From: an uncultured Candidatus Rokubacteria bacterium
GTDB lineage: Bacteria > Methylomirabilota > Methylomirabilia > Rokubacteriales > DASRDR01
DNA: 64,000 nt
Direction: 5' to 3'
Assembly (NCBI GenBank): GCA_963826115.1
Contig: CAWGVS010000003.1
Location: 64,001-128,000, forward strand
Each line of letters opens with the position of its first letter. Positions within the stretch are counted from its first letter, which is position 1. Below, in pieces: positions 16,223-32,391 of the stretch. The notes under the pieces are model-generated. The model was not told the DNA's origin and did no database searches. It saw only the letters and a list, made by a program, of their open reading frames with translations. Position numbers and translations under genes: made by a program.

Positions 16223-16723
16223 ATGGCTACGGACAACTTCATGGTGGGTGAGTCGCTGGTCGGCGACGGCAACGAGATCGCGCACATCGACCTGATCATC
16301 GGTTCGAAGAGCGGGCCCGCCGGGATCGCCTTCGTGCATCGGGTCGCCGACCAGACGGCGGGTCACAACGGGCTCCTCGCCGTGCTCGCGCCCAACGTGC
16401 CGGCCAAGCCGGACACGGTCATGTTCAACAAGGTCACGATCAAGGGCGCCGGCCAGGCCGTCCAGATGTTCGGGCCCGCCCAGGCCGCGGTGGCCAAGGC
16501 GGTCGTCGACAGCGTCGCCGACGGCACCATCCCGAAGGCGAGCGCCAACGACCTCTGCGTGATCGTCGGCGTGTTCATCCACTGGCAGGCGAAGGACAAC
16601 AAGAAGATCTACGACTTCAACTACCGGGCGACCAAGGAAGCGATCACGCGGGCGATGAAGCACCACCCGACCGTGGACGAAGTCCTCGCCCAGAAGGACA
16701 CCGCCAAGCACCCATTCGCGTAG
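16223..16723 (+). CDS. fae: Formaldehyde-activating enzyme
   Basis: VGESLVGDGNEIAHIDLIIGSKSG, KPDTVMFNKVTIKGAGQAVQMFGPAQAAVAKAVVDSVADG and GVFIHW are near-canonical Fae. RBS GGAGG present. Confidence 0.97.
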   Translation: MATDNFMVGESLVGDGNEIAHIDLIIGSKSGPAGIAFVHRVADQTAGHNGLLAVLAPNVPAKPDTVMFNKVTIKGAGQAVQMFGPAQAAVAKAVVDSVADGTIPKASANDLCVIVGVFIHWQAKDNKKIYDFNYRATKEAITRAMKHHPTVDEVLAQKDTAKHPFA

Positions 16724-16815: not shown

Positions 16816-17715
16816 ATGCTGCGCATCAACGGGGTCGAGATCGAGGACACCTTCGCCGAGGCCTTCAAGATGCGCGCGGCCCGCGCGATCGTGACAGCCG
16901 AAACCGCCGCCTGGGCGCACACCGCAGCGGCGCTCGCGACCGGGTACGCCACCTCCGTCATCGGCTGCGACGCCGAGGCCGGCCTCGAGTCCGAGGTGCC
17001 CCCGCACGAGACGCCGGACGGCCGGCCCGGCGTGAGCCTCCTGGTCTTCGGGTTCAACACCGCCGCGCTCGGGAAGGCGCTGGTGAACCGCGTCGGGCAG
17101 TGCGTGATGACATGTCCCACGACCGCCTGCTTCAACGGGCTCCACCCCGGCGAGGAGACCGTGAAGGTCGGCGCGCTCCTCCGCTTCTTCGGTGACGGGC
17201 ACCAGGCGAGCAAGAAGCTCGACGGCCGCCGCTACTGGCGGGTGCCGGTGATGGACGGCGAGTTCCTCTGCGAGGACACGTTCGGCGTCCAGCGCGCCGT
17301 CGCGGGCGGCAACTTCCTGATCCTCGCCACCGATCAGGCCGCCGGGCTCGCCGCGGCCGAGGCCGCCGTTCGGACCATCCGCGCCGTGCCGGGCGTGATC
17401 CTCCCCTTCCCCGGCGGGATCGTCCGGAGCGGGAGCAAGGTTGGCTCGCGTTACAAGGCGCTGAAGGCGTCGACGAACGACGAGTACTGCCCCACCCTCC
17501 GCGGACTGGGCGCGAGCCGTCTCCCCGCCGAGGTCCACGCCGTCTACGAGATCGTCATCGACGGTCTCGACGTCGGGGCGGTCGAGGCCGCCATGCGCGC
17601 CGGCGTCCGGGCCGCATGCCAACCCGGGGTCGTGCAGATCACCGCCGGCAACTACGGGGGCAAGCTCGGCCAGTACCCGCTCCACCTCCACCGGATCCTC
17701 GAATCCGGGTCATGA
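16816..17715 (+). CDS. fhcD: Formylmethanofuran--tetrahydromethanopterin N-formyltransferase (Ftr/FhcD)
   Basis: INGVEIEDTFAEAF, ATSVIGCDAEAG, ETPDGRPG, RVGQCVMTCPTTACF, PFPGGIVRSGSKVGS and TAGNYGGKLG. Confidence 0.96.
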   Translation: MLRINGVEIEDTFAEAFKMRAARAIVTAETAAWAHTAAALATGYATSVIGCDAEAGLESEVPPHETPDGRPGVSLLVFGFNTAALGKALVNRVGQCVMTCPTTACFNGLHPGEETVKVGALLRFFGDGHQASKKLDGRRYWRVPVMDGEFLCEDTFGVQRAVAGGNFLILATDQAAGLAAAEAAVRTIRAVPGVILPFPGGIVRSGSKVGSRYKALKASTNDEYCPTLRGLGASRLPAEVHAVYEIVIDGLDVGAVEAAMRAGVRAACQPGVVQITAGNYGGKLGQYPLHLHRILESGS

Positions 17716-18284
17716 TCGTCGAGACGGTGGTGACGACGCTGGACGAGGACGGCCAGGTGAACTTCGCCGCGATGGGCGTCGTGTGGGGCGAGGAGCGTCT
17801 CGTGATCCGGCCCTACGTCGCGACCCGCACGTTCCGGAACCTCGTTCGCACGCGCGAGGCCGTCGTCAACGTCACCGACGACGTGCTGGTCTTCGCGAAG
17901 AGCGCTCTCGCGCGGGAGCGCTTCCCGAGCCGCCCCGCGACGCGGGTCCGCGGCGCGATCCTGGCGGACGCCTGCCACTGGCGCGAGGTCGCCGTCGAGC
18001 GCGTGTCGGCGCCCGATCCCCCGCCGCCGGCGGGCGGCCGGGCCGACGTGGAGACCCGCGTCGTGGCCGGCGCGGTCGGCCGGCCGTTCGCCGGCCTCTG
18101 TCGCGCCAAGCACGCGGTGGTGGAGGCGAGCATTCTCGCCTCGCGGGCGCGGCGCCTCCCGCGGGACGAGGTGCTCAGGGGCCTCGCCCGGCTCGATCCC
18201 CTGGTCGACAAGACCGGCGGGCCGGCGGAGCGCGAGGCCATGGCATACATCCGCGACCACGTCCGCCGCCTCGTGAGCGGCTGA
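17712..18284 (+). CDS. DUF447 family protein (FMN-binding split-barrel-like, H4MPT-cluster associated)
   Basis: MIVETVVTT...NFAAMGV...RPY...TFRNL...VNVTDDVLVFA...CRAKHAVVEASILASR...VDKTGG. ATGA coupling to fhcD. Confidence 0.85.
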   Translation: MIVETVVTTLDEDGQVNFAAMGVVWGEERLVIRPYVATRTFRNLVRTREAVVNVTDDVLVFAKSALARERFPSRPATRVRGAILADACHWREVAVERVSAPDPPPPAGGRADVETRVVAGAVGRPFAGLCRAKHAVVEASILASRARRLPRDEVLRGLARLDPLVDKTGGPAEREAMAYIRDHVRRLVSG

Positions 18285-18299
18285 CGGCGCCGACCCGGC

Positions 18300-19270
18300 A
18301 TGCGCACGATCGTCGAGGCGGGGGCGCGGCTCCACCTGGGGTTCCTGGACCTCCACGGCGGGTGCGGGCGGCGCTACGGGTCGATCGGCGTCACCCTCGA
18401 GCGCCCGCGCTGCACCGTGGCCGCCGGTCGCGCGCGCCCGGGCGATGCGCCGACGGCGAGCCCCGCGCTCGAGATCCTCGAAGGTCTCGCGCCCGGGCTC
18501 GACCCGAGGGCGATCACGGTCGAGCTCCTCGAGGCGATCCCCGCGCACGCGGGATTCGGCGCGGGCACCCAGCTCGCCCTCGCCGTCGCGCTGGCCGGCG
18601 CGCGCGCCGCCGGCCGCTCGATCGGCATCCGGGAGCTGGCCGCCCGGCTCGGTCGGGGGCAGCGCTCGGGCATCGGCGTCGCAGCCTTCGAGCGGGGTGG
18701 GCTCGTGATCGACGCGGGCCACGCGACGGGCGAGGATGACGGCGCGACCGCGTCACGCGCGCCGGAGCCCCCGCCGGTCGTCTTCCAGCACCCCCTGCCC
18801 GATGCCTGGCAGTTCGTGCTGGCCACGCCGCGCGCCGCTCCCGGTCTCTCCGGCGCGACGGAGCAGCGCGCGTTCGGGGATCTGCCGCCGATGGACGCCG
18901 GACGCGTCGGGCGGATCTGCCGACTCACGCTGATGCAGGTCATGCCGGCGGCGCTGACCAGCGACATCCGAACGTTCGGCGCCGCGATCACCGAGATCCA
19001 GACAGACGGTCGGCGACTACTTCGCGCCGTGGCAGGGCGGTCGGTTCGCGACCGAGACCGGCTGCCGGTGACCGAGCTCGCCCTCGCGCAAGGCGCTCAC
19101 GGCGTGGGCCAGAGCTCCTGGGGTCCGACGGTGTTCGCGCTGGTCCAGGGCGAGGCCGACGCCGAGGCGATGGCCGGCGCGATCGTGGGAGACGCTTCGG
19201 CGAGCGCCTCGCGTGGGTCGGCGTCAGTCCGGCGCGGAACCGGGGCGCGTCGTGCCGAGAGGCACCGTGA
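18300..19270 (+). CDS. mptG: beta-ribofuranosylaminobenzene 5'-phosphate (RFA-P) synthase, GHMP family; frame-disrupted near the C-terminus
   Basis: ARLHLGFLDL, IPAHAGFGAGTQLALA, GRGQRSGIG...FERGGLVIDAG and GQSSWGPT. The family-like VGDYFAPWQGG and C-terminal ARNRGA lie in shifted frames, and the true stop is probably 19268-19270. Confidence 0.88.
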
Positions 19271-20262
19271 GCGCGAGCGATCGACCTGAACCGCCGCGCC
19301 ATCCGCTCGCCGACGCCCTCGCGGACGACGCCGCGCTCGTCGGCGTCCGGGTCACCGAGGTCGGTGGTGCCCGGCTGATCGACTGCGGCGTGGGCGTGGC
19401 GGGCGGGCTCGAGGCCGGGCGGCGCCTCGCGGAGATCTGTCTCGCCGGCCTCGGCACGGTGTCGCTCACCAGCGTGGACGTCGGAGGCCTCTGGCTCGCC
19501 GCGGTGGCGGTGACCACCGATCACCCGGTGACCGCGTGCCTCGCGAGCCAGTACGCCGGGTGGGCCATCGACCCCCCGGGGTACTTCGCCATGGGCTCGG
19601 GTCCCGCCCGCAGCGTGGCCCGGGTGGAGCGGGAGCTCTACCAGCGGATCGGCTATGCGGAGTCGGGAGACTCGGCCGTGCTCGTGCTGGAGGGTCGCGC
19701 CCTGCCGGACGAGGCGGTCGTGCGGTTCGTGGCCGACAAGTGTCGCGTCCGGCCGGAGGGTCTGAGCCTCCTGATCGCCCCCACCGCCAGCATCGCCGGC
19801 TGCGTCCAGGTGGCCGCGCGCTCCGTGGAGACGGGGCTCCACAAGATGCTCGAGCTCGGGTTCGACGTGCGCGCCGTGCGGAGCGGCGCCGGCGTGTGCC
19901 CGCTCGCCCCGGTGGCGAAGAACGACCTCCGCGGCATCGGCTGGACGAACGACTGCATCCTCTACGGCACGCGCGCCTACTTCGCCGTCCACGCCGACGA
20001 TGCCGAGGTCGCGGCGATGGTCGAGCGGCTCCCCGCCTCCTCGTCGGCGGACTACGGCACGCCCTTCTACGACATCTTCAAGCGGGCCGGGAACGACTTC
20101 TACAAGATCGACAAGATGCTGTTCAGCCCCGCCGAGGTCGTCGTGAACAACCTCGCCTCGGGGCGCGTCCTCCGGGCCGGACGGCTCGCCCCCGAGATCC
20201 TCCGCAGGTCGCTCGGGCTGGACGAGTCCGCGCCGGGCGCCGGTCCCGGGAGCCGGTCGTGA
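19267..20262 (+). CDS. mch: Methenyltetrahydromethanopterin cyclohydrolase
   Basis: ACLASQYAGW, MGSGPAR, APTASIAGCVQVAARSVETGLHK, TNDCILYG and DFYKIDKMLFSPA. Confidence 0.96.
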   Translation: MSASDRPEPPRHPLADALADDAALVGVRVTEVGGARLIDCGVGVAGGLEAGRRLAEICLAGLGTVSLTSVDVGGLWLAAVAVTTDHPVTACLASQYAGWAIDPPGYFAMGSGPARSVARVERELYQRIGYAESGDSAVLVLEGRALPDEAVVRFVADKCRVRPEGLSLLIAPTASIAGCVQVAARSVETGLHKMLELGFDVRAVRSGAGVCPLAPVAKNDLRGIGWTNDCILYGTRAYFAVHADDAEVAAMVERLPASSSADYGTPFYDIFKRAGNDFYKIDKMLFSPAEVVVNNLASGRVLRAGRLAPEILRRSLGLDESAPGAGPGSRS

Positions 20263-21167
20263 AGGTCGTCATCCTGGGCTCCCGGTCCGGCTGGCACGAG
20301 GCCCGTCTCGGGCACGCGCTCCGGGAACGCGGCGCGGAGCCCATGGTGGCGCCGGTCACCGCGCTCGCGACCGCCGTGGCGGCCCCGGGCGAGGGACCGC
20401 GGCTCGCCGCCGGCGGCGTGCCGCTCGACGACTGCGGCGCGGTGATCGTGCGCGCGATCCCCGCCGGCTCGCTCGAGCAGGTGATCTTCCGGGTGGACGC
20501 CCTCCACCGCATGGCCCGACTCGGCGTCGCAGTCATCAACTCCCCGCGGTGTGTGGAGCGCACGGTGGACAAGTACTTCACCTCGACGATCCTCGAGGAC
20601 GCGGGCCTCCCGACGCCCCGGACCCGCGTGTGCGAGCGGGTCGACGACGCGCTCGCCGCCTACGAGGCCCTGGGCCGGGACGTCGTGATCAAGCCCCTCT
20701 TCGGCTCGGAGGGTCGCGGGATCGTGCGGGTGTCCGATCCCGACCTCGCGTACCGCACCTGCCGGGCCCTCGAGCTCACGCGGTCGGTATTCTATCTGCA
20801 GGAGTTCGTGCCCCACGGGGAGCGCGACATCCGAGCGTTCGTCGTCGGCGGCCGTCTGGTGGCGGCCATGACTCGCCGGGGCGCGGGGTGGAAGACGAAC
20901 GTCTCGCAGGGCGCGCGCGCGGAGCGGGTCGCCCTGTCCCCGGCGCTCGAGCGCCTGAGTCTCGAGGCCGCGGGGCGGCTCGAGGCCGACTACGCGGGGG
21001 TGGACCTTCTGTGCGCGGACGACGGGCGGACCTTCGTGATCGAGGTCAACGGGATACCGGGATGGCGCGGGCTCCAGCAGACGACCGACGTCGACGTCGC
21101 CGGCGCGATCGCCGACCACGCCATCGCGGTCGCCGGGCGCGGGCTCCCCGTCCCGGCCGCGCCATGA
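20259..21167 (+). CDS. RimK-family ATP-grasp glutamate ligase (Orf5-like of H4MPT clusters)
   Basis: GSLEQVIFRVDALH, ERTVDKY, KPLFGSEGRG, FYLQEF, WKTNVSQG and EVNGIPGWRGLQ. Follows mch as in methylotroph clusters. Confidence 0.92.
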   Translation: MKVVILGSRSGWHEARLGHALRERGAEPMVAPVTALATAVAAPGEGPRLAAGGVPLDDCGAVIVRAIPAGSLEQVIFRVDALHRMARLGVAVINSPRCVERTVDKYFTSTILEDAGLPTPRTRVCERVDDALAAYEALGRDVVIKPLFGSEGRGIVRVSDPDLAYRTCRALELTRSVFYLQEFVPHGERDIRAFVVGGRLVAAMTRRGAGWKTNVSQGARAERVALSPALERLSLEAAGRLEADYAGVDLLCADDGRTFVIEVNGIPGWRGLQQTTDVDVAGAIADHAIAVAGRGLPVPAAP

Positions 21168-22048
21168 GCGCGGCGGCGGTCCTCGCGGACCGGCCCTCGC
21201 CGGCGCGCATCGCGGCGGCCGCGACCCTGGCCTGCACGCTCGAGGCCTGCGCGGAGAAGGTGGGCAACGTCACGCCCACCCGCGCCTTCGCCGACGCGCG
21301 CTTCGACGACTTCGCGCTGAGCGCGCAGGCGCTCGGGTCCGCGGTCGCCGGCGCCGCGCCGGGCCGGGTGGGCCGCGCGATCTACGACGCGGTCGCCGCG
21401 ACCGGCCGCGTCGCGCCGTCCAACACCAACCTCGGCATGGCCCTCCTGTTCGCGCCGCTCGCGGCCGCCGCCCGCGGGCGCTCGAGGACGGCGCTCCGGC
21501 GTCGCCTGGTGCCGGTGCTGCGAGGGCTGAGCGTCGACGACGCGCGCTGGGCCTACCGGGCGATCCGCCTCGCGCGCCCGGGCGGGCTCGGGGAGAGCCC
21601 GGACGCGCCGGTCGCCCGCCCGCCCCGCATCACACTCGGCGAGGCCATGCGGCTGGCCGCGCGGCGGGACACCGTGGCGGCGGAGTACGGTCGGGGCTTC
21701 GCGGTGACGTTCGACCTCGCCCTCGCGCGGCTCCGCCGGGCGCTCCGCCGCGGCCTCCCGCTGCTCGACGCGATCGCGCAGGCCCACCTCGAGCTGATGG
21801 CCCGCGTGCCGGACACCCTGATCGCGCGCAAGGCCGGCGCCGCCGCCGCCGCGCGAGTGGCCGCGCGCGCCGACGCGGTGGTGCGGGCCGGGGGGATCGC
21901 GACGCGGCGCGGGCTCGCCGCCGCGCGGCGGCTCGACCGAGACCTCCGGCGGCACGGGAACCGCCTGAACCCCGGCACGTCGGCGGACCTCGTCGCTGCC
22001 GCCCTGTTCGTGTGGCTCCTGGAAGCGCCGGGACGAGGGCGCGCATGA
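21164..22048 (+). CDS. CitG-like triphosphoribosyl-dephospho-CoA synthase family protein (Orf7-like)
   Basis: EACAEKVGNV, NTNLGMALLFAPL, PDTLIARKAG and LNPGTSADLVAAALF. Confidence 0.9.
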   Translation: MSAAAVLADRPSPARIAAAATLACTLEACAEKVGNVTPTRAFADARFDDFALSAQALGSAVAGAAPGRVGRAIYDAVAATGRVAPSNTNLGMALLFAPLAAAARGRSRTALRRRLVPVLRGLSVDDARWAYRAIRLARPGGLGESPDAPVARPPRITLGEAMRLAARRDTVAAEYGRGFAVTFDLALARLRRALRRGLPLLDAIAQAHLELMARVPDTLIARKAGAAAAARVAARADAVVRAGGIATRRGLAAARRLDRDLRRHGNRLNPGTSADLVAAALFVWLLEAPGRGRA

Positions 22049-22569
22049 GCCGGCCGCCGAGCCCCTTCCGCGTCCGCATCGAGAAGGACTACACCGTCTT
22101 CTGCGCCGGCCACTTCATCACGTACGACGGGCACGAGTGCGAGCCGCTCCACGGCCACAACTACCGGGCGGCGGCCGCGCTGGAGGGCCCGCTGGACGAG
22201 AACGCCTACGTCTTCGACTTCAGCAAGCTCAAGCGCGCGCTCCGCGCCATCGTCGACCGCCTCGACCACCGGATGCTCCTGCCGACCAAGAGCGCGCTCA
22301 TCCGGGTTACGCAGTCGGGCGCCGAGGTGGAGGCGGCCTACCGGGAGAAGCGGTACGTCTTCCCGGCGAGCGACGTGGTGCTCCTCCCGATCCCCAACAC
22401 CACCGCCGAGATGCTGGCCTGGTGGATCGCGCAGGAGCTTCGCCGAAGTCTGGGCGCGCTCTCGCCCGGGATGACGGCCCTCGAGGTCGAGGTCGACGAG
22501 TCGTCCGGCCAGCGGGCCTTCTACCGGGAGCCGCTCGATTCCCCGGGCGGCGGAGCCGGGCCGGCGTGA
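22045..22569 (+). CDS. 6-pyruvoyltetrahydropterin synthase family protein with dual PTPS-I/III motif
   Basis: FCAGHF...CEPLHGHNY...DF...LDHRMLLP...NTTAEMLA...EVDES. Confidence 0.9.
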   Translation: MSRPPSPFRVRIEKDYTVFCAGHFITYDGHECEPLHGHNYRAAAALEGPLDENAYVFDFSKLKRALRAIVDRLDHRMLLPTKSALIRVTQSGAEVEAAYREKRYVFPASDVVLLPIPNTTAEMLAWWIAQELRRSLGALSPGMTALEVEVDESSGQRAFYREPLDSPGGGAGPA

Positions 22570-24026
22570 CGGCGCCGTCGGTCGTCTACCTCGGCCTCGG
22601 CTCGAACCTGGGCGACCGCCAGGCGAACCTCGCGGAGGCGATCCAGGCCCTCCGCACCCACGTCCGGATCGAGCGCGTGTCCCCCGTGTACGAGACCGAG
22701 CCGGTGCACGTGACCGACCAGCCGCGGTTCCTGAACCTCGCCGTGAAGGGCGTCACCGCCCTCGAGCCGGCGGAGCTCCTCGCCGCGGTCAAGCGCATCG
22801 AGGCGCGGATGGGCCGGCAGCCGGGCGAGCGGTACGGCCCGCGGCCGATCGACGTCGACATCCTCTTCTACGGCGACCGCGTGATCCGCACCGACGCGCT
22901 CGAGGTGCCGCACCCGCGGGCCGCCGAGCGCGGCTTCGTCCTGGTGCCGCTCCACGACATCGCCCCCGACCTCCGGCATCCGGAGCGCGGGCGCAGCGTC
23001 GCCGAGCTCCTCCGGGATCTCGGGGAGACGCGCGGTATCGTCCGCGTGGCGCGCGGCCTCACGGCGCGGCTCGAGCGCGATGTCCAGGAGGAGTCGCCGC
23101 TCGCGCGGATCCGGCTCGACCAGACGGGCGTCACGGGACTCCACCGCATCATCCGCCTCTCCGACGGCCGGGGCCTCTTCTACGCGACGCTCGACCTCTT
23201 CGTCGAGCTGCCGGCCGACCAGAAGGGCGCCCACATGTCGCGCTTCAGCGACACGGTGGAGGAGGTGCTCGAGGACCTGGGCGCCTTCGAGGCCCCGATG
23301 ATCGAGACGCTCGCCGAGCGCATCGCGCGCGCCCTGACCGTCGGCCATCGCGCCGAGCGCGCGGACGTGGAGATCCGCGCCCAGTTTCCGCTCGAGCGCC
23401 GCGCGCCGATCTCCGGCAAGCCCTCGCAGGAGCTCTACACGCTGATCGGCCTCGCCGCCGCCAGCCCGCGCCGCACGGTCCAGCTCATCGGCGTGGAGGC
23501 GGAGGGGATGATGGCGTGCCCGTGCGCCCAGGAGATGGTCCGCGCGCAGGCCGAGGCGCGCCTCCGGGAGCACGGGCTCGCGCCGGACCTCACCGCGGAG
23601 GTCTTGTCGCTGGTCCCGATCGCCACGCACAACCAGCGGGGGCGCGGGCGCCTGCTGGTCGGCGCGGACCGCGCGCTCCGCGCCGAGGACCTGGTCGAGA
23701 TCGTCGAGGGCGCGATGAGCTCCGAGAACTACGACCTCCTGAAGCGCCCGGACGAGCTGTTCGTGGTGGAGAAGGCGCACCGCCACCCCCGTTTCGTCGA
23801 GGACGCGGTGCGGGAGATGCTGCGGACCTTCGTGAGCACCTACCCCGAGCTGGCGGACGACGCCTACGTCCACGCCCGGCAGGTGAACATGGAGACGATC
23901 CACAAGCACGACGTCTTCGCCCAGCGCGGCGGGCAGCTGGGCGAGATCCGGGGCGAGCTCCTCGACGGGAAGCCCCGCGGGAGCACCGCGCTCTCCGCCT
24001 GGCTCGCCGCCCGGCTCGCGGGCTAG
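22566..24026 (+). CDS. folK: Fusion: FolK (HPPK) + GTP cyclohydrolase IB (FolE2/MptA-like)
   Basis: N-terminal VYLGLGSNLGDR, YETEP, FLNLAV, GPRPIDVDILFY and PHPRAAERGFVLVPL. C-terminal KGAHMSRF, GMMACPCAQ, ATHNQRG, LKRPDE, PRFVEDAVR and ETIHKHD. One uninterrupted frame. Confidence 0.92.
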   Translation: MTAPSVVYLGLGSNLGDRQANLAEAIQALRTHVRIERVSPVYETEPVHVTDQPRFLNLAVKGVTALEPAELLAAVKRIEARMGRQPGERYGPRPIDVDILFYGDRVIRTDALEVPHPRAAERGFVLVPLHDIAPDLRHPERGRSVAELLRDLGETRGIVRVARGLTARLERDVQEESPLARIRLDQTGVTGLHRIIRLSDGRGLFYATLDLFVELPADQKGAHMSRFSDTVEEVLEDLGAFEAPMIETLAERIARALTVGHRAERADVEIRAQFPLERRAPISGKPSQELYTLIGLAAASPRRTVQLIGVEAEGMMACPCAQEMVRAQAEARLREHGLAPDLTAEVLSLVPIATHNQRGRGRLLVGADRALRAEDLVEIVEGAMSSENYDLLKRPDELFVVEKAHRHPRFVEDAVREMLRTFVSTYPELADDAYVHARQVNMETIHKHDVFAQRGGQLGEIRGELLDGKPRGSTALSAWLAARLAG

Positions 24027-24763
24027 CCGGGCGCGATCAGGTCGGCGGCGCCCAGGACGCCGGTATGGAGCGCGGTCCCGACCAGCGCGGCCTGGTAGCC
24101 CGCGGCCGCGAGCGCGCGAAGGTCGTCCCGGCCCCGCACCCCGCCGCCGAGCACGATCTCGGCCTCCGGCAGCCGCGCCCGGAGCCGCCGCGCGGGCTCC
24201 GTCTCGGGACCGGCGCGCGCTCCCACGCGCGCGAGGTCGAGGACGATGAACGTCCGGAGGCCCGCCGCCCAGGCCTCGGCGGCCAGCTCCGTGGCCTCGG
24301 CCCCGGCGACGGCCGGCGATCCGCCGAGGAGCCGCCCCTCGCGATGGTCGAGGCTCAGGATGCAGTCCGCGCCGCGGCTCGTCTCCCGCACGGCCGTGGC
24401 GATCGCGCGGAGGTCGCGCACGTCGCGCAGCGTCTCCGTGCCGACGATCACCCGCGCGGCGCCGTGCGAGACGGCGCGCCGGGCGCCGTCGGCCGTGGAC
24501 ACGCCGGCGTCGAGCCACACCGACAGCCCGAGCTCGGCGATCGCCCGGACGACCGGGCCGTGGTCGCCCGTGCCCGCGATGGCGTCGAGGTCGGCGACGT
24601 AGCAGGCGTCCGAGCCCAGGCGCTCGCGGAAGCCGCGCGCGAGGGCGACCGGGTCCGCGGAGTCCGAGAGCACGCTCCGTACCGGCGCGTAGGCGTGACG
24701 CTCGCCGCGCACCGCATGGACGGCCACGCCGCCCTTCAGGTCCATCACGGGCACGATGCGCAT
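24023..24763 (-). CDS. HisA/HisF-related TIM-barrel protein (Orf17-like)
   Basis: MRIVPVMDLKGGVAVHAVRGERHAYAP, YVADLDAI, IVGTETL, VLDLARVG and LGGGVRG. Confidence 0.9.
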   Translation of the reverse strand: MRIVPVMDLKGGVAVHAVRGERHAYAPVRSVLSDSADPVALARGFRERLGSDACYVADLDAIAGTGDHGPVVRAIAELGLSVWLDAGVSTADGARRAVSHGAARVIVGTETLRDVRDLRAIATAVRETSRGADCILSLDHREGRLLGGSPAVAGAEATELAAEAWAAGLRTFIVLDLARVGARAGPETEPARRLRARLPEAEIVLGGGVRGRDDLRALAAAGYQAALVGTALHTGVLGAADLIAPG

Positions 24764-24843
24764 CGCGGAGCGGAGGATAGCACGCGTGCAACGCATCTTG
24801 GCGACGACGCCGGTCTGACCGGACGGCCTTCGGCCTGTGGGCG

Positions 24844-25866
24844 ATGACCCGCGCAAGCCGGGTCCTCGGCTGGGACGTGGGCGGCGCCTACGTCAAGGCG
24901 GCGGTCGTGGAGCAGGACGGAGCCGGACGCCGTGTCCGCACGGCGAGCCGGCCCTTCGAGATCTGGCGCGACAAGAACGCCTTGCCCGACGTCCTCCGCG
25001 CGCTCGCCGCCGAGCTGCCCGCACCGGAGTCCGTGGCGGTGACGATGACCGCGGAGCTCTCGGACGTGTTCCGGACGAAGCGCGAGGGCGTCCACTTCGT
25101 CCTCGACGCCGTCGAGGCCGTGTCGCGGGCGCCGGTGCGCGTCTTCACGACGGCGGGCGAGTTCGTGGACCCCGCCGTCGCGCGGGCGCGGCCCCTCGAC
25201 GCGGCGGCCTCCAACTGGGTCGCCACCGCCCTGCTGGTCGGGCGGTTCGTCCCCGAGACGCTCCTCGTGGACATCGGCTCGACGACGACCGACGTGATCC
25301 CGGTGACGAAGGGGCAGGTCGCGGCCCTCGGCCGGACCGACCCCGAGCGGCTCTCGAGCGGGGAGCTCGTCTACACCGGTGCCCTCCGCACGAACGTGGC
25401 GGCCATCGTCCGTCGGGTCCCCTTGCGGGGCGCCCAGTGCCCGGTGGCCTCCGAGCTGTTCTCGGTGAGCGGCGACGTCCACGTGCTCCTCGGATCTCTC
25501 GCGCCGGATGAGTACACGTGCCCGACTCCCGACGGCCGGCCGCCCACGCCGGAGTTCGCGGCGGAGCGCCTCGCGCGGGTCGTGTGCGCGGACGGCGACA
25601 TGCTCGACCCCGAGGAGATCCGGGCCATCGCGCGGGCGGTCGACGAGGCGCAGGTCGAGGAGATCGCGGGGGCCATCGCCCGGGTGGCGGGCCGGCGGGC
25701 CGAGGGAACGCCCGTGATCGTCACCGGGCTCGGCGCCTTCCTCGCGCGCCGCGCCGCGGAACGGCTCGGGCTGCCGGTCCGGGATCTCGCGGACGTCCTC
25801 GCCGTCGACGTCGGCACCGTCGCGCCCGCGGTCGCCGTCGCCTGGCTCCTCCTCGACGCCGACTGA
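24844..25866 (+). CDS. Hydantoinase/oxoprolinase-fold H4MPT-linked protein (Orf9/MfnF-like)
   Basis: LGWDVGGAYVK, AVTMTAELSDVF, AASNWVATA, DIGSTTTDVIP, DPERL and GELVYTG. Confidence 0.9.
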   Translation: MTRASRVLGWDVGGAYVKAAVVEQDGAGRRVRTASRPFEIWRDKNALPDVLRALAAELPAPESVAVTMTAELSDVFRTKREGVHFVLDAVEAVSRAPVRVFTTAGEFVDPAVARARPLDAAASNWVATALLVGRFVPETLLVDIGSTTTDVIPVTKGQVAALGRTDPERLSSGELVYTGALRTNVAAIVRRVPLRGAQCPVASELFSVSGDVHVLLGSLAPDEYTCPTPDGRPPTPEFAAERLARVVCADGDMLDPEEIRAIARAVDEAQVEEIAGAIARVAGRRAEGTPVIVTGLGAFLARRAAERLGLPVRDLADVLAVDVGTVAPAVAVAWLLLDAD

Positions 25867-25869
25867 CGC

Positions 25870-26523
25870 ATGCGCCGGGCTCGCGCGACGCCCGACTGGG
25901 TGATCAAGGTCGGCGGGAGTCTGGGCGCGCGACCCGCCCCGCTCCGTCGCCTGATGGCCACCCTGGCGCGCGCCGGGCGGCACCGCTGGCTCGTCGTCGT
26001 CCCCGGCGGCGGTAGCTTCGCCGACGAGGTGCGCCGGGCCGACCGCCGCTACGACCTCGGCGACTCGGCCGCCCACTGGATGGCCATCCTGGCGATGGAC
26101 CAGTACGGCCATCTTCTCGCGCGGCTCGCGCCCGGGGCACGCGTCGCGGCGAGCCGGCGCGAGCTCGCCCCGGGCCGGCTCAACGTGCTGCTCCCGTCAG
26201 CCTGGCTCCGGCGCGCCGACCCCCTGCCCCATTCCTGGGACGTCACGTCGGACTCGATCGCCGCGTGGGTGGCCCGCGAGCTCGGCGTCCGGCGCCTCAT
26301 GCTGGTGAAGCACCGTGACGGTTTCGTCGCGCCCGCCCGCGGGCCGCGGAGGGTGCCGCCGCGCGAGCGGCGATCCTCCCTCGCCGCGCTCGCGGGCGCG
26401 GTCGACCCCTATTTCGCGCGCGCCGTCGATCCGGCCACTGGCTGCTGGCTCGTCCAGGGACACCGGCCCGGCGCGATCGCGCGTCTCATCGACGCGGACG
26501 GGCCGCGCGGATCGCGCGCCTAG
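25870..26523 (+). CDS. Amino-acid-kinase-family protein (Orf21/MfnE-like)
   Basis: VIKVGGSL, VVPGGGSFADEVR, AHWMAILAMDQ and LPHSWDVTSDSIAAW. Confidence 0.9.
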   Translation: MRRARATPDWVIKVGGSLGARPAPLRRLMATLARAGRHRWLVVVPGGGSFADEVRRADRRYDLGDSAAHWMAILAMDQYGHLLARLAPGARVAASRRELAPGRLNVLLPSAWLRRADPLPHSWDVTSDSIAAWVARELGVRRLMLVKHRDGFVAPARGPRRVPPRERRSSLAALAGAVDPYFARAVDPATGCWLVQGHRPGAIARLIDADGPRGSRA

Positions 26524-26555: not shown

Positions 26556-27275
26556 TCAGGCCGACTGCCCGACGGTCGGCCGGGGGCCGCGTGCGCGGAC
26601 GAGGGCGCGCACCCGCTCGGCGTCGACCCGGCCCCCGACACGGTCGCCGATGCAGGCGGCGCCGCGCACGCCCACGAGGTCGGGGCCGATCGGCGCGAGC
26701 CGCGCGAGGTCCTCGACCCGAAGGGAGCCGGCGAGCGCCGAGAAGAGGCCGCGCGCGCGGCAGTCCTCGACGAAGGCCGCGAGCTCGTCCTCGCCGAGCC
26801 AGTGGAAGAGCCCGCGGCCGTCCTTCACGGCGGTGTCGACCAGGCAGCCGTGGGCGCCCGCGGCGGCGGCGAGGGCCGGCAGGTCGCGGGGCCGGGGCGC
26901 TCCCGCGCGCGCGAAGTCGGCGAAGCCCGCCACCACGAGGTAGGCCTCGGGAGGCAGGCTCGCGCGCGCCGCGCGAAGAGCGGCCGCGGCCGCCGCCGGC
27001 GACGTCTCGCGGAGCCCGAGCTTCACGTAGATCGCGCCGCTCCGCGCCGCCGCCCCGGCCAGGGCCGCCGCCACCGCCGGCGTGAACGGCCCATCGCCGA
27101 GCGCGGCGCTCACCGGCAGGCTCGCGGGCGTGGCGTCCCGCACCGCGCGGACCGTGGCCGGCGCGGCCTCGCCGAGGGCTCCGAGCGCGGGATCCTTGAC
27201 GTCGATGATGTCGGCGCCGGCGTCCGCCGCGATCCGGGCTTCCGCGGCGTCCACGACGCTCACCAGGAGGCGCAT
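26556..27275 (-). CDS. mfnB: (5-formylfuran-3-yl)methyl phosphate synthase (DUF556, Orf22)
   Basis: MRLLVSV...EA...GADIIDVKDPALGALG, PVSAALGD, YVKLGL, LVDTAVKDG, LAGSL and PDLVGVRGAAC. Confidence 0.93.
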   Translation of the reverse strand: MRLLVSVVDAAEARIAADAGADIIDVKDPALGALGEAAPATVRAVRDATPASLPVSAALGDGPFTPAVAAALAGAAARSGAIYVKLGLRETSPAAAAAALRAARASLPPEAYLVVAGFADFARAGAPRPRDLPALAAAAGAHGCLVDTAVKDGRGLFHWLGEDELAAFVEDCRARGLFSALAGSLRVEDLARLAPIGPDLVGVRGAACIGDRVGGRVDAERVRALVRARGPRPTVGQSA

Positions 27276-27342: not shown

Positions 27343-28101
27343 GTGAGGCGTCTCGACGGTCAGGTGGCGGTGGTCACCGGGGCGAGCCGGGGCATCGGCC
27401 GCGCGATCGCGCTCGCGCTCGCGCGGGAAGGCGCGCGCGTCGTCGTCAACTACTCCCGGTCGCGTGAGCTCGCCGAGGCCGTGGTCGCCGAGATGGTTGC
27501 CGCCGGGGGCGAGGCCCTCGCCATCCGCGCGGACGTTTCGCGGTCGGACGACGTCGCCAATCTCCTGGGCTCGACGCTCGGCACGTGGGACCGGATCGAC
27601 ACGTGGGTCAACAACGCGGGCGCCGACATCCTGACGGGCGACGCGCGGACCTGGCCCCCCGAGCGCCGCTGGGACGCGGTGATGACCGTCGACCTCAAGG
27701 GCACCTGGCTGTGCTCGCGGGCGGCGGCGGACGCGATGCGCCGGGCCGGCGGCGGCGTCATCGTGAACCTCTCCTGGGACCACGTCACCCACGGGATGGG
27801 CAACCAGACGGCGGCCATCTACGCCGCCGCGAAGGGCGGCGTGGCGGCCATGAGCCGTTCCCTCGCGCGGGAGTACGCGCCCCTCGTGCGGGTCAACGTG
27901 GTCGCGCCCGGCTGGGTCCGGACCGAGTGGCTCGACGGCGCCGGCGCCGAGGTCCAGCAACACGTGAGGGACGCGACCCCGCTCGGCCGTCCCGGCACGC
28001 CCGACGACGTCGCCGGCGCGGTCGCGTTCCTCGCCTCCGCCGACGCGGCCTTCATCACCGGACAGACCCTGCTGGTGAACGGAGGCGTCGTGGCCAGCTG
28101 A
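27343..28101 (+). CDS. SDR family oxidoreductase (candidate pterin reductase)
   Basis: GTG after AGGAGG. TGASRGIG, VNNAG, YAAAKGG, VNVVAPG and FITGQTLLVNGG. Confidence 0.88.
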   Translation: MRRLDGQVAVVTGASRGIGRAIALALAREGARVVVNYSRSRELAEAVVAEMVAAGGEALAIRADVSRSDDVANLLGSTLGTWDRIDTWVNNAGADILTGDARTWPPERRWDAVMTVDLKGTWLCSRAAADAMRRAGGGVIVNLSWDHVTHGMGNQTAAIYAAAKGGVAAMSRSLAREYAPLVRVNVVAPGWVRTEWLDGAGAEVQQHVRDATPLGRPGTPDDVAGAVAFLASADAAFITGQTLLVNGGVVAS

Positions 28102-28189
28102 TGCGCCACACGGCGCGGGCCGCGTGGACGCTCCGGCGCCCCGCGGTCCGGCGACCATTTGCGAAGCGCGAGATCCGCAGGAGGGCATC

Positions 28190-28570
28190 ATGGCTGAAGA
28201 GAAGAAGCTCCCGGTCCTTCCGGACGACGAGATCGAGCGGCGGCTCGCCCAGGAGCTGCCGGGCTGGTGGTACGAGGGCCGCTGGATCCGCCGGAAGTAC
28301 AACACGGACGGCTGGCTCACGACGCTCGCGATGGTCAACACGATCGGCTACGTCGCCGAGGCCGCCTGGCACCATCCGGACCTCGAGGTGACGTGGGGCA
28401 AGGTGTGGGTGAAGCTGCGCACCCACTCGAGCAACGGTGTCACGGAGCGGGACTTCGCGCTGGCCAAGCGCCTCGAGGACGCGGTCCTGTGGCGCCCGGG
28501 CTCGGGCTCCCACATGGAGGGCACGCCCAACAAGTGGGTGAAGGGCGGGAGCCCCGATAAGCCCGCCTGA
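28190..28570 (+). CDS. Pterin-4a-carbinolamine dehydratase
   Basis: AEAAWHHPDLEVTWGKVWVKLRTHSSNGVTERDFALAK (HHPD motif). RBS AGGAGG present. Confidence 0.92.
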   Translation: MAEEKKLPVLPDDEIERRLAQELPGWWYEGRWIRRKYNTDGWLTTLAMVNTIGYVAEAAWHHPDLEVTWGKVWVKLRTHSSNGVTERDFALAKRLEDAVLWRPGSGSHMEGTPNKWVKGGSPDKPA

Positions 28571-28592: not shown

Positions 28593-29975
28593 GTGCCCAA
28601 GACGCTCTTCGTCACCGGCAAGCTCGCCGAGCCGGCGCTCCGGGCGACGCTCGCCCGGATGGCGCCGGACTTCCCCTACGAGGTGGTGGTCCTGCGGATC
28701 ACCGTCGCCGCGCTCATGACGACCTCCTGGATCGCGAAGCACCTCACGGACGTCTCCGGCTCGGAGCGCATCGTCATCCCGGGTCTCTGCGAGGGCGACG
28801 TGCGGGCGATCGAGGACCGGTGGGGCGTGAGGGCCGAGAAGGGGCCCACCGACCTCCGGGACCTGCCGGAGCACTTCGGTCAGGCGGCGCTCCGGGAAGA
28901 ATACGGCGCCCACGACATCCGGATCTTCGCGGAGATCAACAACGTCCCGTACCTCCCCCGCGAGGAGGTGGTGCGGGCAGCGGAGTACTACCGGGCGAGC
29001 GGCGCCGACGTCGTCGACCTCGGCTGCTCCCTCGACCGGAAGTTCGACGACGTCGCCGAGGTCGTGGGCCTCCTGAAGGCCCGCGGGTTCACCCTCAGCA
29101 TCGACACCCTCGACCCCGGGGAGATCGCCGCCGCCGACCGGGCCGGCGTCGACTACGTGCTGAGCCTGAACGGCCGGAACCTCGACCTGGCCGACACGCT
29201 CCGGGCCACGCCGGTCCTCATCCCGGACTCGCCCGCCGAGCTCGACACCCTGGACCGGAGCATCGCCCGTCTCGAGGCGCTCGGGCATCCCTACATCGTG
29301 GATCCGGTGATCGAGCCGATCGGGTTCGGCTTCGCGGCGGCGCTCGACCGCTACGTGCAGGTCCGGGCGCGCCACCCCGCGGTCGAGATCCTGATGGGCA
29401 TCGGCAACATCACGGAGCTGACCGACGCCGACACCACCGGGATGAACGCGCTCCTGATCGGCTTCTGCCAGGAGCTCGGCGTCCGTCACGTGCTCACGAC
29501 CGAGGTCATCCCGTGGGCGCGCGGCTCGGTGCGGGAGATCGACGTGGCCCGCCGTCTGATGTACGCGGCCCGCCAGCGCGGCGTCCTCCCGAAGCACGTC
29601 GACGACCGGCTGCTCACGGTCAAGGACGCGCGACCGAAGTACTACGCGGAGGCGGAGCTCCGGGAGCTCCACCGCGCGATCACCGATCCGAACTTCCGCA
29701 TCGCGACGACGCGCGATGCGATCTGCGTGTTCAACAACCGCCTGTTCGTGACCGGCACGGACATCCAGGCGATCTTCGAGCAGCTCGACGTCCAGGACCC
29801 CGCCCACGCGTTCTACCTCGGCAAGGAGCTGATGAAGGCCCGCCTCGCGCTCCTCCTCGGCAAGACCTACGTGCAGGAGCAGCCGCTCCGCTGGGGCTAC
29901 CTGACGCCCCCGCGCGAGGACACGGCCCACCGCCGCGTGCGGATCGAGGGACGCCGGAAGCCGCGGGACCAGTAG
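28593..29975 (+). CDS. Dihydropteroate synthase-like protein (Orf20-like, with DUF4346-type C-terminus)
   Basis: LFVTGKLAE, VAALMT, KGPTDLRDLP, IFAEI, GADVVDLGC, DPVIEPIGFG, MGIGNITELTDADTTG and HAFYLGKEL. Confidence 0.9.
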   Translation: MPKTLFVTGKLAEPALRATLARMAPDFPYEVVVLRITVAALMTTSWIAKHLTDVSGSERIVIPGLCEGDVRAIEDRWGVRAEKGPTDLRDLPEHFGQAALREEYGAHDIRIFAEINNVPYLPREEVVRAAEYYRASGADVVDLGCSLDRKFDDVAEVVGLLKARGFTLSIDTLDPGEIAAADRAGVDYVLSLNGRNLDLADTLRATPVLIPDSPAELDTLDRSIARLEALGHPYIVDPVIEPIGFGFAAALDRYVQVRARHPAVEILMGIGNITELTDADTTGMNALLIGFCQELGVRHVLTTEVIPWARGSVREIDVARRLMYAARQRGVLPKHVDDRLLTVKDARPKYYAEAELRELHRAITDPNFRIATTRDAICVFNNRLFVTGTDIQAIFEQLDVQDPAHAFYLGKELMKARLALLLGKTYVQEQPLRWGYLTPPREDTAHRRVRIEGRRKPRDQ

Positions 29976-30300: not shown

Positions 30301-30405
30301 GGAGCGTCCGACCGCGCCGATCGGTCCGCTGATCGCCGCCGCGCCTCCCGCGGCGCGTGGGGTAGGATTGTGGGACGCCGCAAGTCACCCCACCGGGAGG
30401 TGCGC

Positions 30406-31260
30406 GTGAAGAAGTTGCTCCTGCAGCTCGATCCCGACAAGCATCCCAGCGCGTTCGACCGCATCGTCGCCCACGACGCGGGCGCGGATGAGGTCCTGAG
30501 CTACGGCGGCGTGGCGCCGGCCGACGTCACGCCGCTCGTGCACGGCGCGATCTTCACGCGCGGACCCGGCGAGCTCCGCAACACCGCGATATGGGTCGGC
30601 GGCACGGACGTCGGCCAGGCCGAGGCGCTGTTCGCCGCGGTCCAGAAGGCGTTCTTCGGCCCGTTCCGGGTCAGCGTGATGATGGACGCCAACGGGTGCA
30701 ACACGACCGCCGCCGCCGCGGTGGCGCGGCTCGCCGGCGTGGTCACGCTCTCCGGCGCCCGGGCCGTCGTCCTGGGCGGAACCGGGCCGGTCGGGCTCCG
30801 GGCGGCGACGCTCCTGGCGCGCGAGGGCGCCGGCGTGACCCTCTGCTCGCGGTCCCACGAGCGGGCACGCGCCGCGTGCGAGCAGCTGAAGGCGCGCTTC
30901 GCGGTGGACGTGAGCCCGTGCGAGGCGTGGGACGAGGAGGGGGTGGCGCGCGCGCTCGAGGGCGCCGACGTCTGCCTGACCGCCGGCGCCGCCGGCATTC
31001 AATTCCTCCCGCGCTCCCTGTGGGCTCCGCACCCCGCGCTGAAGGCGCTCGCCGATGTGAACGCGGTCCCCCCGCTGGGCATCGGCGGCATCGAGGCGAC
31101 CGACAAGGGGGCCGAGCGAGACGGCAAGCGCGTGTTCGGCGCGCTCGGCATCGGCGGCCTCAAGATGAAGGTCCACCGCGCGTGCGTGGCGAAGCTCTTC
31201 GAGCGAAACGACACCGAGCTGGACCTCGAGGCCATCTACGCTGCCGCGCGCGCCAGCTGA
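30406..31260 (+). CDS. NAD(P)-dependent methylene-H4MPT dehydrogenase (MtdA/MtdB/MtdC family; appears MtdC-like)
   Basis: MKKLLLQLDPDKHPSAFD, HGAIFTRGP, FFGPFRVSVMMDANGCNTTAAAAV, GGTGPVG, DVNAVPPLGIGGI and GALGIGGLKMKVH. Confidence 0.93.
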   Translation: MKKLLLQLDPDKHPSAFDRIVAHDAGADEVLSYGGVAPADVTPLVHGAIFTRGPGELRNTAIWVGGTDVGQAEALFAAVQKAFFGPFRVSVMMDANGCNTTAAAAVARLAGVVTLSGARAVVLGGTGPVGLRAATLLAREGAGVTLCSRSHERARAACEQLKARFAVDVSPCEAWDEEGVARALEGADVCLTAGAAGIQFLPRSLWAPHPALKALADVNAVPPLGIGGIEATDKGAERDGKRVFGALGIGGLKMKVHRACVAKLFERNDTELDLEAIYAAARAS

Positions 31261-31296
31261 GGCACCCGCGGCGCGCTCGGGCCCCGCTCCCGACTG

Positions 31297-32391
31297 ATGC
31301 CGCGCGTCGTCGGCGTCGATCCCGGCACGCAGAGCGTGGACCTCTGCGGACTCGCGGACGGCCAGGTGTTCCTCGAAGCGTCGGTCCCGGCCGATGAGGG
31401 GGGCCGCGCCCCGGCGGCGCTGGTGGACCGGCTGGCCGCGGCGCTTCCCCTCGACCTGATCGTCGCGCCCTCCGGCTACGGGCTGCCGCTCGTCCCCGTC
31501 GCCCAGCTCGACCCGTCGCGCCTCGACCTCGCGCTCCTCGTGCGACCCGAGGACCGCGCGCAGCCGGAGCGTGTCGGCGGCCTCCGCGCCATGCTCGAGG
31601 GGATGCAGGCGCGCGGGCTGCCGGCGGTTCTCCTGCCCGGCGTGGTGCACCTCGACACCGTGCCGGCGCACCGCAAGGTGAACCGCGTCGACATGGGCAC
31701 CGCGGACAAGCTGTGCGTGGCCGCCCTCGGCATCTGGGACCAGAGCCGCCGCCTCGCGTGTTCGCCCGCCGAGACCGGATTCGTGCTGCTCGAGCTCGGT
31801 GGCTTCTTCACCGCCGCGCTCGCCGTCGAGGCGGGGTGCGTCGTCGACGGGATCGGCGGGAGCGCGGGAGGCCTCGGGTACCGCGCCCTCGGGACGCTCG
31901 ACGGCGAGGTCGCCTACGTCCTCGGACGGGTGCGGAAGTCGGCGCTCTTCACCGGCGGGGCCGCGTTCGTCGCCGGCGCGCCGGACCTCTCCCCCGAGGA
32001 GCTGGCGGCGCGCGCGACCCGGGATCCGCGTGCCCGGATGGCCTGGGACGCGCTGATCGAGGCCGCGGCCAAGCTCGTGGCGGCGCTGAGGGTCACCGCG
32101 CCCGGCGCGCGCGAGGTGCTGCTCTCGGGACGCGTGGGCCGCGTGCCGACCGTCGTCGAGGCGCTCGAGCGTCGGCTCGCCGGCGCGCTCCCCGTGCGCC
32201 CCCTCGACCGCTTCACCGACCGCGTGAAGGAAGCGGCCCAGGGCGCGGCGCTGCTCGCGGACGGCCTCGCCGGCGGCCAGCATCGGGAGATCGTCGAGGC
32301 ACTGCGCCTCCGCGCGAGCGGCGGCTCGGTGCTCGACCATCTCTACGTGGCGGGCGCGGACGAGGTGCGGCGCCGCTTCGGGCTGGCGTGA
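31297..32391 (+). CDS. DUF1464 family protein (ASKHA/butyrate-kinase-like)
   Basis: VGVDPGTQSVDLCGL, APSGYGLP, PGVVHLDTVPAHRKVNRVDMGTADK, GTLDGEVAY and KEAAQGAALLADGLAGG. Confidence 0.88.
   Translation: MPRVVGVDPGTQSVDLCGLADGQVFLEASVPADEGGRAPAALVDRLAAALPLDLIVAPSGYGLPLVPVAQLDPSRLDLALLVRPEDRAQPERVGGLRAMLEGMQARGLPAVLLPGVVHLDTVPAHRKVNRVDMGTADKLCVAALGIWDQSRRLACSPAETGFVLLELGGFFTAALAVEAGCVVDGIGGSAGGLGYRALGTLDGEVAYVLGRVRKSALFTGGAAFVAGAPDLSPEELAARATRDPRARMAWDALIEAAAKLVAALRVTAPGAREVLLSGRVGRVPTVVEALERRLAGALPVRPLDRFTDRVKEAAQGAALLADGLAGGQHREIVEALRLRASGGSVLDHLYVAGADEVRRRFGLA

Follow-up and report, generated by a model that had tools for sequence, protein, structure and literature searches.

Does a bacterial methanopterin operon make its own pterin, or does it draw on folate synthesis? 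The pterin head of bacterial tetrahydromethanopterin (H4MPT) has been assumed to be borrowed from the folate pathway. A 64,000-nucleotide stretch of an uncultured Candidatus Rokubacteria genome (GenBank assembly GCA_963826115.1, contig CAWGVS010000003.1, positions 64,001 to 128,000 of the forward strand), here called the window, suggests together with its relatives that many H4MPT islands may supply the pterin themselves. Inside an H4MPT/methanofuran operon, it carries a gene of the PTPS family coupled to a gene in which FolK is joined to a GTP cyclohydrolase IB. We propose, with about even confidence, that this pair forms a self-contained module leading from GTP to 6-hydroxymethyl-7,8-dihydropterin diphosphate. 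The C-terminal, MptA-type domain of the fusion would open GTP to give a dihydroneopterin phosphate ester, the long-form PTPS with its CExxHGH motif would remove the side chain to leave 6-hydroxymethyl-dihydropterin (elsewhere the job of FolB), and the N-terminal FolK domain would add the diphosphate. An enzyme of the island that resembles dihydropteroate synthase (DHPS) would then join the pterin diphosphate to the ribofuranosyl-aminobenzene phosphate made by MptG. These predicted activities, the intermediate, and a mainly methanopterin destination of the product are drawn from gene structure, family membership, synteny, and co-occurrence.

The pair and the two domains of the fusion lie as follows.

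22045..22569, + strand, PTPS gene (ATG 22045 to TGA 22569, 174 amino acids; Pfam PTPS 86.9 bits, cut-off 22.4)
22566..24026, + strand, FolK/GTP cyclohydrolase IB fusion gene (GTG 22566 to TAG 24026, 486 amino acids)
22566..23075, + strand, N-terminal FolK (HPPK) domain (residues 1 to ~170; TIGR01498 folK 144.7 bits, cut-off 54.1)
23076..24026, + strand, GTP cyclohydrolase IB domain of the fusion, MptA sequence type (residues ~171 to 486; TIGR00294 MptA)

Frames and stops agree exactly with the coordinates that the original prediction had given for both genes. They also bear out its description of a complete FolK in frame with a GTP cyclohydrolase IB: one frame of 486 residues, with no stop codon inside it, matches both Pfam HPPK (135.6 bits, cut-off 25.7) and GCHY-1 (214.1 bits, cut-off 25). 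The coupling that it described to a CEPLHGH-bearing PTPS is seen in a GTGA overlap between the PTPS stop and the fusion start. Three junctions 5′ of the pair have 4-nucleotide overlaps as well (mch/MptN-like, GTGA; MptN-like/CitG-like, ATGA; CitG-like/PTPS, ATGA), and the fhcD/DUF447 junction is another ATGA overlap. The FolK domain matches the solved HPPK 7mpy at 136.6 bits. The stretches GSNLGDR, RPIDxDIL, and PHP, which have catalytic roles in FolK, can be read in the window protein and in most members of an alignment of 11 fusions, and the CPC, HNQR, and KRPDE columns of the cyclohydrolase are invariant across all 11. Both domains look intact, because the folK and MptA equivalog models are passed, 7mpy is matched, and these columns do not vary. 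A structure model of the fusion (mean predicted local distance difference test score, 87.2), which served for domain layout only, has two confident domains and a low-confidence linker at residues 166 to 171.

Might assembly or a frame error have linked two separate genes? Two of the 120 listed homologue clusters (P0121 and P0122, 91 to 93% identity) bear GCHY-1 only; the other 118, at 64 to 100% identity and from several independent sources, bear both HPPK and GCHY-1, and no stop interrupts the frame. Furthermore, at least 10 full-length fused representatives with 41 to 61% identity are found among the best 150 listed at 50% clustering, and five of six other genomes of the same genus have the full-length fusion, the sixth genome being 79% complete. 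A locus scan that took one genome per species and scored fusion by a tblastn criterion kept 80 loci, of which 44 are fused; one more (L053) has a divergent N-terminal domain, and the remaining 35 are stand-alone relatives, all from Actinomycetota. The fused loci come from Chloroflexota, Eremiobacterota/Vulcanimicrobiota, a Binatus metagenome-assembled genome (MAG), two proteobacterial MAGs, a complete Solidesulfovibrio genome, and a Synergistales MAG, so that the fusion recurs in at least five further phyla. The clusters, the same-genus genomes, and the loci of other phyla rule out an artefact, to which we assign a negligible probability, and the fusion is genuine.

The FolK half is not equally preserved everywhere. 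P0135 is without the GSNLGDR and IDxD stretches and P0136 has partly lost the conserved FolK stretches, and in four Eremiobacterota-type genomes (G158 to G161) the fused HPPK scores only 88 to 99 bits and a second FolK adjoins FolB.

Which kind of GTP cyclohydrolase is joined to FolK? The domain passes the NCBIfam MptA equivalog TIGR00294 (280.1 bits, cut-off 220) and falls short of the FolE2 equivalog NF010200 (139.8 bits, cut-off 215). Against solved FolE2 chains it scores just 78 to 83 bits, in an alignment of two pieces, and its closest stand-alone relatives outside Bacteria are archaeal proteins that their sources name MptA or FolE2. For a careful tree with no root inferred, 46 rows were chosen by hand: along with the window domain, they comprise 18 of the 80 loci, 10 representatives each of the fused and the stand-alone form, and 7 annotated references. 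Two long branches (Sulfitobacter and Arthrobacter) and several rows of skewed composition are flagged in it. A branch with support of 100/99 separates the five bacterial FolE2 references from all other rows and places the window domain on the same side as the archaeal rows. Within that side, the window domain falls together with P0123 and the domain of a Chloroflexia MAG (100/99), and six named archaeal rows form a clade with three unnamed ones (also 100/99). The spacer from CPC to HNQR, which forms two helices in the structure model, is 34 amino acids long in the window domain and in all named archaeal rows. It is 32 to 36 amino acids long in all 39 of the 41 non-FolE2 rows in which the CPC-to-HxQR pattern was matched, and 9 amino acids in four of the five FolE2 references and 18 in the fifth. 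Model, tree, and spacer thus agree with the predicted MptA-like cyclohydrolase, whose GMMACPCAQ and ATHNQRG strings are both found in the protein, and by these sequence traits the domain is of the MptA type.

With FolE2 taken as the root, the archaeal MptA clade is nested inside bacterial MptA-type rows. Because of this nesting, the label "archaeal-specific" for the MptA subtype may not hold.

Is the PTPS of a kind that could stand in for FolB? Its motif context is HECEPLHGHNY. According to PMC5041015, ExxHGH marks PTPS-III and CxxxHGH marks PTPS-I, with hybrids active in both pathways; CEPLHGH satisfies both definitions and so agrees with the dual PTPS-I/III signature that the original prediction had seen in it. 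The best solved relatives are the Plasmodium PTPS chains 1y13, 2a0s, and 3lze (E ~1e-19), which have the same long form and a Glu with which the Glu of the window protein aligns. In Plasmodium, a Cys-to-Glu change is described as letting PTPS yield 6-hydroxymethyl-dihydropterin (abstract of PMC2229834). All eight long-form PTPS neighbors of fusions have C-E-x-L-HGH. The window PTPS is therefore proposed, from its motif and form, to cleave the side chain of a dihydroneopterin phosphate to 6-hydroxymethyl-dihydropterin. At L011 (7428-7908), in an 11.3-Mb Chloroflexia MAG, the PTPS beside the fusion is split over two frames by a frameshift or an assembly indel.

The distribution of this long form was followed in two sets of genomes. 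The first was a survey of 21 genomes: that of the window, five relatives, and 15 genomes from other phyla. Here the long CE-type PTPS occurs in 8/9 genomes with Mch, the methenyl-H4MPT cyclohydrolase, and in 1/12 without it, that one having no FolB. The long form is present in five of the seven FolB-less genomes and in 4 of the 14 that have FolB, the window's included, all four being Mch positive; in the remaining ten with FolB, any PTPS present is of a short C-only form. Across the survey, the long CE-type PTPS goes together with methanopterin genes and tends to accompany the loss of FolB. The second set was an evenly drawn sample of 151 genomes of the window's phylum (three unpublished ones, G101, G047, and G058, enter only the tallies); related genomes are not independent, and the results are given as counts with no statistical test. 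Mch was found in 28 genomes, together with the long PTPS in 23 and alone in 5 (all 82 to 88% complete); 3 genomes carry the PTPS without Mch, and 120 lack both. In family f2, Mch and the long PTPS are confined to the same 2 of the 94 genomes. In one of these, G010 (98% complete), the island is syntenic with that of the window and the PTPS has 74% identity. Another genome, G087, has its long PTPS near an Mch fragment; the orthologues of these two genomes are at 73 to 74% identity, and both genomes have FolE and no GCHY-1. So do G008 and G044, which also carry the long CE-type PTPS; among the four, FolB is present in G010 only.

G008, a single contig of 100% completeness with FolE and neither FolB nor GCHY-1, has the long CE type as its sole PTPS, far from its H4MPT island. 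With this gene content, a single PTPS would have to cover both folate and methanopterin, as well as queuosine if that is made.

A different role for the window PTPS would be that of QueD, or of an enzyme that makes and recycles a biopterin-like pterin together with a short-chain dehydrogenase (SDR) and a carbinolamine dehydratase, without replacing FolB. Its motif fits CxxxHGH, its best NCBIfam match is QueD (TIGR03367, 68.2 bits), and an SDR and a carbinolamine dehydratase are present in the island. The QueD score is nonetheless below the cut-off of 89.25, and elsewhere in the genome two further PTPS paralogues lie next to FolE, one of them a C-only QueD type (CARDHGH) and the other with neither Cys nor Glu (LATIHGH). 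The Glu, the long form, and the Plasmodium match point instead to 6-hydroxymethyl-dihydropterin, as does the long form's presence in most FolB-less genomes of the survey, and a cyclohydrolase joined to FolK implies that the substrate of FolK is made. We consider the QueD or biopterin role very unlikely.

The two paralogues belong to a run of genes on contig 6 (~140200-143600; L004 and L006) in the order glycosyltransferase, LATIHGH PTPS, CARDHGH QueD-type PTPS, FolE, SDR, and ErpA-like gene. This looks like a separate pterin cluster around the housekeeping FolE, possibly for a glycosylated biopterin-like pterin. Paired PTPS genes of this sort are also found in G010, G087, and G108.

Does the source organism need the pair for its folate? 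The source genome is 99% complete and has FolE on contig 6, FolB adjoining a second FolK on contig 2, and FolP on contig 5; the matches to FolB and FolP exceed NCBIfam equivalog cut-offs, those to FolE and the second FolK Pfam cut-offs. The original prediction had named a folB elsewhere as part of what would refute it, and such a gene is present. The predicted bypass of FolB by the PTPS therefore fails, and the module would be a second, island-borne supply. The fusion is the only GCHY-1 protein of the genome. Profiles for MptD (PF04038) and MptE (PF01973) found no match in it and were positive in archaeal controls. MptB did not exceed its cut-off there (best score, 21.6 bits against 172.35), and both methanogen controls passed.

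Profile searches place the pair within an H4MPT/methanofuran island that spans ~16.2 to 32.4 kb of the window. Its flanking genes match H4MPT and methanofuran families, in keeping with the predicted location inside an H4MPT operon, and fae, fhcD, mch, mptG, and DHPS-like genes are clustered as in bacterial islands of this kind. The genes around the pair are listed here.

16223..16723, + strand, fae, formaldehyde-activating enzyme, first gene of the island (Pfam Fae 238.8 bits; start taken from the translation)
16816..17715, + strand, fhcD-like formylmethanofuran:H4MPT formyltransferase (Pfam FTR 201 bits, FTR_C 214 bits)
17712..18284, + strand, DUF447 protein (Pfam DUF447_N and DUF447_C)
18300..19289, + strand, MptG-family beta-ribofuranosylaminobenzene 5′-phosphate synthase, predicted to make the partner of the pterin diphosphate (TIGR00144 166.3 bits, above the cut-off of 113.5)
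19213..20262, + strand, mch, methenyl-H4MPT cyclohydrolase, probably starting downstream of 19213 (Pfam MCH 387.7 bits)
20259..21167, + strand, RimK-family/MptN-like glutamate ligase (TIGR00768 197.6 bits, above 143.4; MptN model 258.8 bits, below 350)
21164..22048, + strand, CitG-like protein with an ATGA overlap at both ends (Pfam CitG 228.5 bits)
24023..24856, - strand, HisA/HisF-family protein, convergent with the fusion (Pfam His_biosynth 122.3 bits; TIGR00734 133.1 bits, below cut-off)
24844..25866, + strand, H4MPT-linked C1 pathway protein, MfnF-like (TIGR03123 353.1 bits, above 244.1)
25870..26523, + strand, amino-acid-kinase family protein, MfnE-like (Pfam AA_kinase; MfnE model 92.9 bits, below cut-off)
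26556..27275, - strand, MfnB-like 4-HFC-P synthase of the methanofuran branch (Pfam 4HFCP_synth 224.3 bits)
27343..28101, + strand, SDR (Pfam adh_short_C2; many SDR models match, none decisive)
28184..28570, + strand, pterin-4a-carbinolamine dehydratase homologue (NF002017 87.8 bits, above 80)
28593..29975, + strand, DHPS-like protein, proposed consumer of the pterin diphosphate (TIGR00284 194.3 bits, below 256.65; Pfam DUF6513 and PterinBD-DUF4346)
30301..31260, + strand, methylene-H4MPT dehydrogenase-like (mtdB-like) protein (Pfam Mpt_N 109.2 bits)
31261..32391, + strand, DUF1464 protein, last island gene seen (Pfam DUF1464 285 bits)

The SDR and carbinolamine dehydratase genes (27343-28570) stand just 5′ of the DHPS-like gene, and both are kept in the islands of G010 and G108. 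A carbinolamine dehydratase gene also lies between the fusion and the DHPS-like gene at the Chloroflexia locus L011.

How closely is the fusion tied to methanopterin? Within the phylum sample it is confined to the window's genus, being found in full length in the source genome and the five congeners and in 0/144 genomes outside. Elsewhere, a PTPS adjoins 8 of the 44 fusions, and these eight include all six of the fused loci with two or more H4MPT markers. At L017 and L047 a DHPS-like gene comes directly after the fusion and PTPS, and at five stand-alone Actinomycetota loci the MptA-type gene is directly upstream of a DHPS-like gene. Fifteen genomes of other phyla (G151 to G165) were reached through named loci; their sizes are given, their completeness is not, and several are small MAGs. 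Mch was found in 3 of them, FolE in 1, and FolB in 11, and each has a single GCHY-1 copy except Solidesulfovibrio (G162), which has two. No GTP cyclohydrolase I other than the MptA-type enzyme was found in 13 of the 15; 10 of these 13 have an ordinary FolB, and in six of the 13 the fusion is also the sole FolK.

From these data we read the module as a putative dedicated second supply in the source genome and in G108, G151, and G162, because these island carriers, the ones in which cyclohydrolase genes were searched for, keep a separate housekeeping cyclohydrolase. This is FolE in the first three and, in G162, a short GCHY-1 copy assigned to the FolE2 type solely by its score and the length of its match. 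In G010, the slot of the fusion (L115, 5614-7470, - strand) is taken by a 618-amino-acid PabB joined to a PabC-like domain, which by its family assignment is a supply of p-aminobenzoate rather than of pterin.

The pair could instead be a general folate or pterin module with no special tie to methanopterin, one that came with a horizontally acquired island and is redundant with FolE, FolB, and FolK. The restriction of the fusion to one genus within the phylum fits this account, as does its nearest relative, which is in a Chloroflexia MAG with very similar gene order; moreover, elsewhere the fusion is a housekeeping enzyme and can adjoin FolP. Set against this are the translational coupling of genes within the operon, the PTPS retained beside every island-borne fusion (6/6), often with a DHPS-like gene adjacent, the separate housekeeping cyclohydrolase of the four island carriers, and the PabB-PabC fusion of G010, which occupies the same slot and would be another precursor supply for the same cofactor. 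On balance, we find a general module distinctly unlikely.

Several observations nevertheless weigh against a self-contained module that serves methanopterin. The source genome has its own FolB and second FolK, and the module could have been carried in on a transferred island as a redundant extra. The PTPS motif fits QueD too, and the proposed module leaves the neighboring SDR and pterin carbinolamine dehydratase without explanation. Among the fused loci, 38 of 44 have at most one H4MPT marker in the flanking sequence retrieved, Mch was not found in 12 of the 15 other-phylum genomes, and a canonical FolP lies directly upstream of the fusion in L029. Furthermore, 22 Mch-positive genomes of the phylum sample are without the fusion, and methanopterin synthesis therefore does not need it. 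The surveyed genomes are related to one another, and many are incomplete MAGs. The "minimal pterin supply dedicated to methanopterin" of the original prediction thus holds in its architecture, with steps 1 and 3 fused and the PTPS gene as neighbor in an H4MPT operon; it does not hold as a bypass, nor is the fusion dedicated to methanopterin generally. Finally, the cyclohydrolase domain is MptA by sequence, and if it makes the cyclic phosphate, either a ring-opening step would be missing or the PTPS would have to use an unreported substrate.

Which ester, then, would pass between the two proteins? Most likely the intermediate is the triphosphate, with the MptA-like domain acting like FolE2. We favor it because close PTPS orthologues sit beside FolE alone, because no MptB was found, and because an MptA-type enzyme must feed FolB-dependent folate synthesis in other phyla. 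The alternative is archaeal chemistry. The MptA of Methanocaldococcus jannaschii, in work by Grochowski in 2007, is said to depend on Fe and to yield a 2′,3′-cyclic phosphate. Archaea with MptA also run PTPS-family enzymes. On this account the MptA-type domain would release the 2′,3′-cyclic phosphate, and the PTPS would take either that compound or a monophosphate from an unrecognized phosphodiesterase. The MptA equivalog that the domain passes, the FolE2 model that it fails, its place on the archaeal side of the 100/99 branch, and its archaeal spacer length all fit. In addition, PTPS-III members of some Archaea are described, in PMC5041015, as working in H4MPT synthesis, perhaps on a monophosphate. 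This prior link between archaeal PTPS-III and H4MPT makes the earlier statement that either an MptA-like enzyme releasing triphosphate or a PTPS accepting the cyclic phosphate would be new biochemistry too strong. G162 also encodes a 191-amino-acid HD protein with a full-length but sub-threshold match to the MptB model (C1, 594916-595413; 103.6 bits, cut-off 172.35), far from its island. Against archaeal chemistry, though weakly, MptB stays under its cut-off in the source genome and in all 15 other-phylum genomes, which besides the G162 protein have only generic HD-domain matches. The PTPS orthologues of 73 to 74% identity are in genomes with FolE only, and the MptA type is the sole GTP cyclohydrolase I in genomes of which most have an ordinary FolB. 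We regard archaeal chemistry as unlikely, though not far-fetched.

A narrower variant, which we hold to be quite improbable, is that a cyclic phosphate is made and accepted directly by the long CE-type PTPS without MptB, perhaps with the PTPS docked to the fusion. If so, GTP would be converted to the pterin diphosphate with no release of dihydroneopterin triphosphate, and the supply for methanopterin would be insulated from the FolE-fed pools of folate, queuosine, and biopterin.

How does the module, with triphosphate as its most likely intermediate, relate to known systems? All its enzymes belong to known families with predictable reactions, and the advance lies in how the pathway is wired and annotated rather than in a new principle. 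Like PTPS-III and dual PTPS-I/III proteins (COG0720), the window PTPS has ExxHGH with a preceding Cys and the Plasmodium-type long form, which is found in FolB-less genomes; unlike them, it is known from sequence in a methanopterin operon of a genome that has FolB, and it is coupled to an MptA-type cyclohydrolase rather than to FolE or FolE2. With FolE2 (solved as 3d2o, 2r5r, and 8g6c), the cyclohydrolase domain has in common the Pfam family, the CPC, HNQR, and KRPDE-type columns, and probably its role as first enzyme of pterin synthesis; it differs in its junction with FolK, in its longer spacer, and in failing the FolE2 model. With archaeal MptA it shares the equivalog model, the spacer, and the side of the tree, but it is bacterial, is fused to FolK, has no MptB, MptD, or MptE partner found in the genome, and is of a type that in other bacteria must feed ordinary folate synthesis.

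The end product would be the same as that of the archaeal MptA/MptB/MptD/MptE route and of its Pyrococcus-type PTPS-III variant, and with the latter the module has in common the idea of a PTPS-III serving methanopterin (PMC5041015). In contrast to the archaeal route, only an MptA-type piece is present, and the kinase is a bacterial FolK, not MptE. Known FolK fusions (FolB-FolK, 2cg8; FolK-FolP, 7mpy, 4pzv, 3mcm, and 2bmb) likewise join FolK to an enzyme of its own pathway; they link consecutive steps, whereas the window fusion combines steps 1 and 3, with a separate gene for step 2. The H4MPT islands of methylotrophs and other phyla have clustered fae, fhcD, mch, mtdB-like, mptG, DUF447, CitG-, MptN-, DHPS-, and Mfn-like genes, as does the window. 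The wide spread of such islands in Bacteria is described in PMC5020050; in its excerpted text, neither a GTP cyclohydrolase nor a PTPS or FolK is mentioned as an island gene. In the full-text literature searched, judged from titles, opening lines of abstracts, and selected passages among the papers listed, and whose scope did not extend to supplements (for example, the folate-fusion table of PMC1971073, which might include this fusion), we found no description of a fusion of FolK with FolE2 or MptA, nor of a PTPS in a bacterial H4MPT island. The FolK-MptA fusion, a PTPS-III-type gene in bacterial methanopterin islands, and the breadth of MptA in Bacteria thus appear to be undescribed in that literature.

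The wider consequences concern annotation. Across the whole phylum the long CE-type PTPS appears linked to methanopterin, and the "archaeal" type of cyclohydrolase is widespread in Bacteria. Since pterin synthesis in 13/15 sampled genomes has no first enzyme other than an MptA-type one, automatic names such as "GTP cyclohydrolase IV" may assert a product that those organisms could not process. PMC13397572 states that the MptA family has no experimental structure; the soluble bacterial fusions would lend themselves well to a first one. A very divergent GCHY-1-like gene, annotated as a hypothetical protein, is carried by the Arthrobacter plasmid pZXY23 (L097, 2905-3900). Its product has a 34-amino-acid spacer and a long branch in the tree, and the gene comes directly after one for a TauD-type dioxygenase on this conjugative plasmid.

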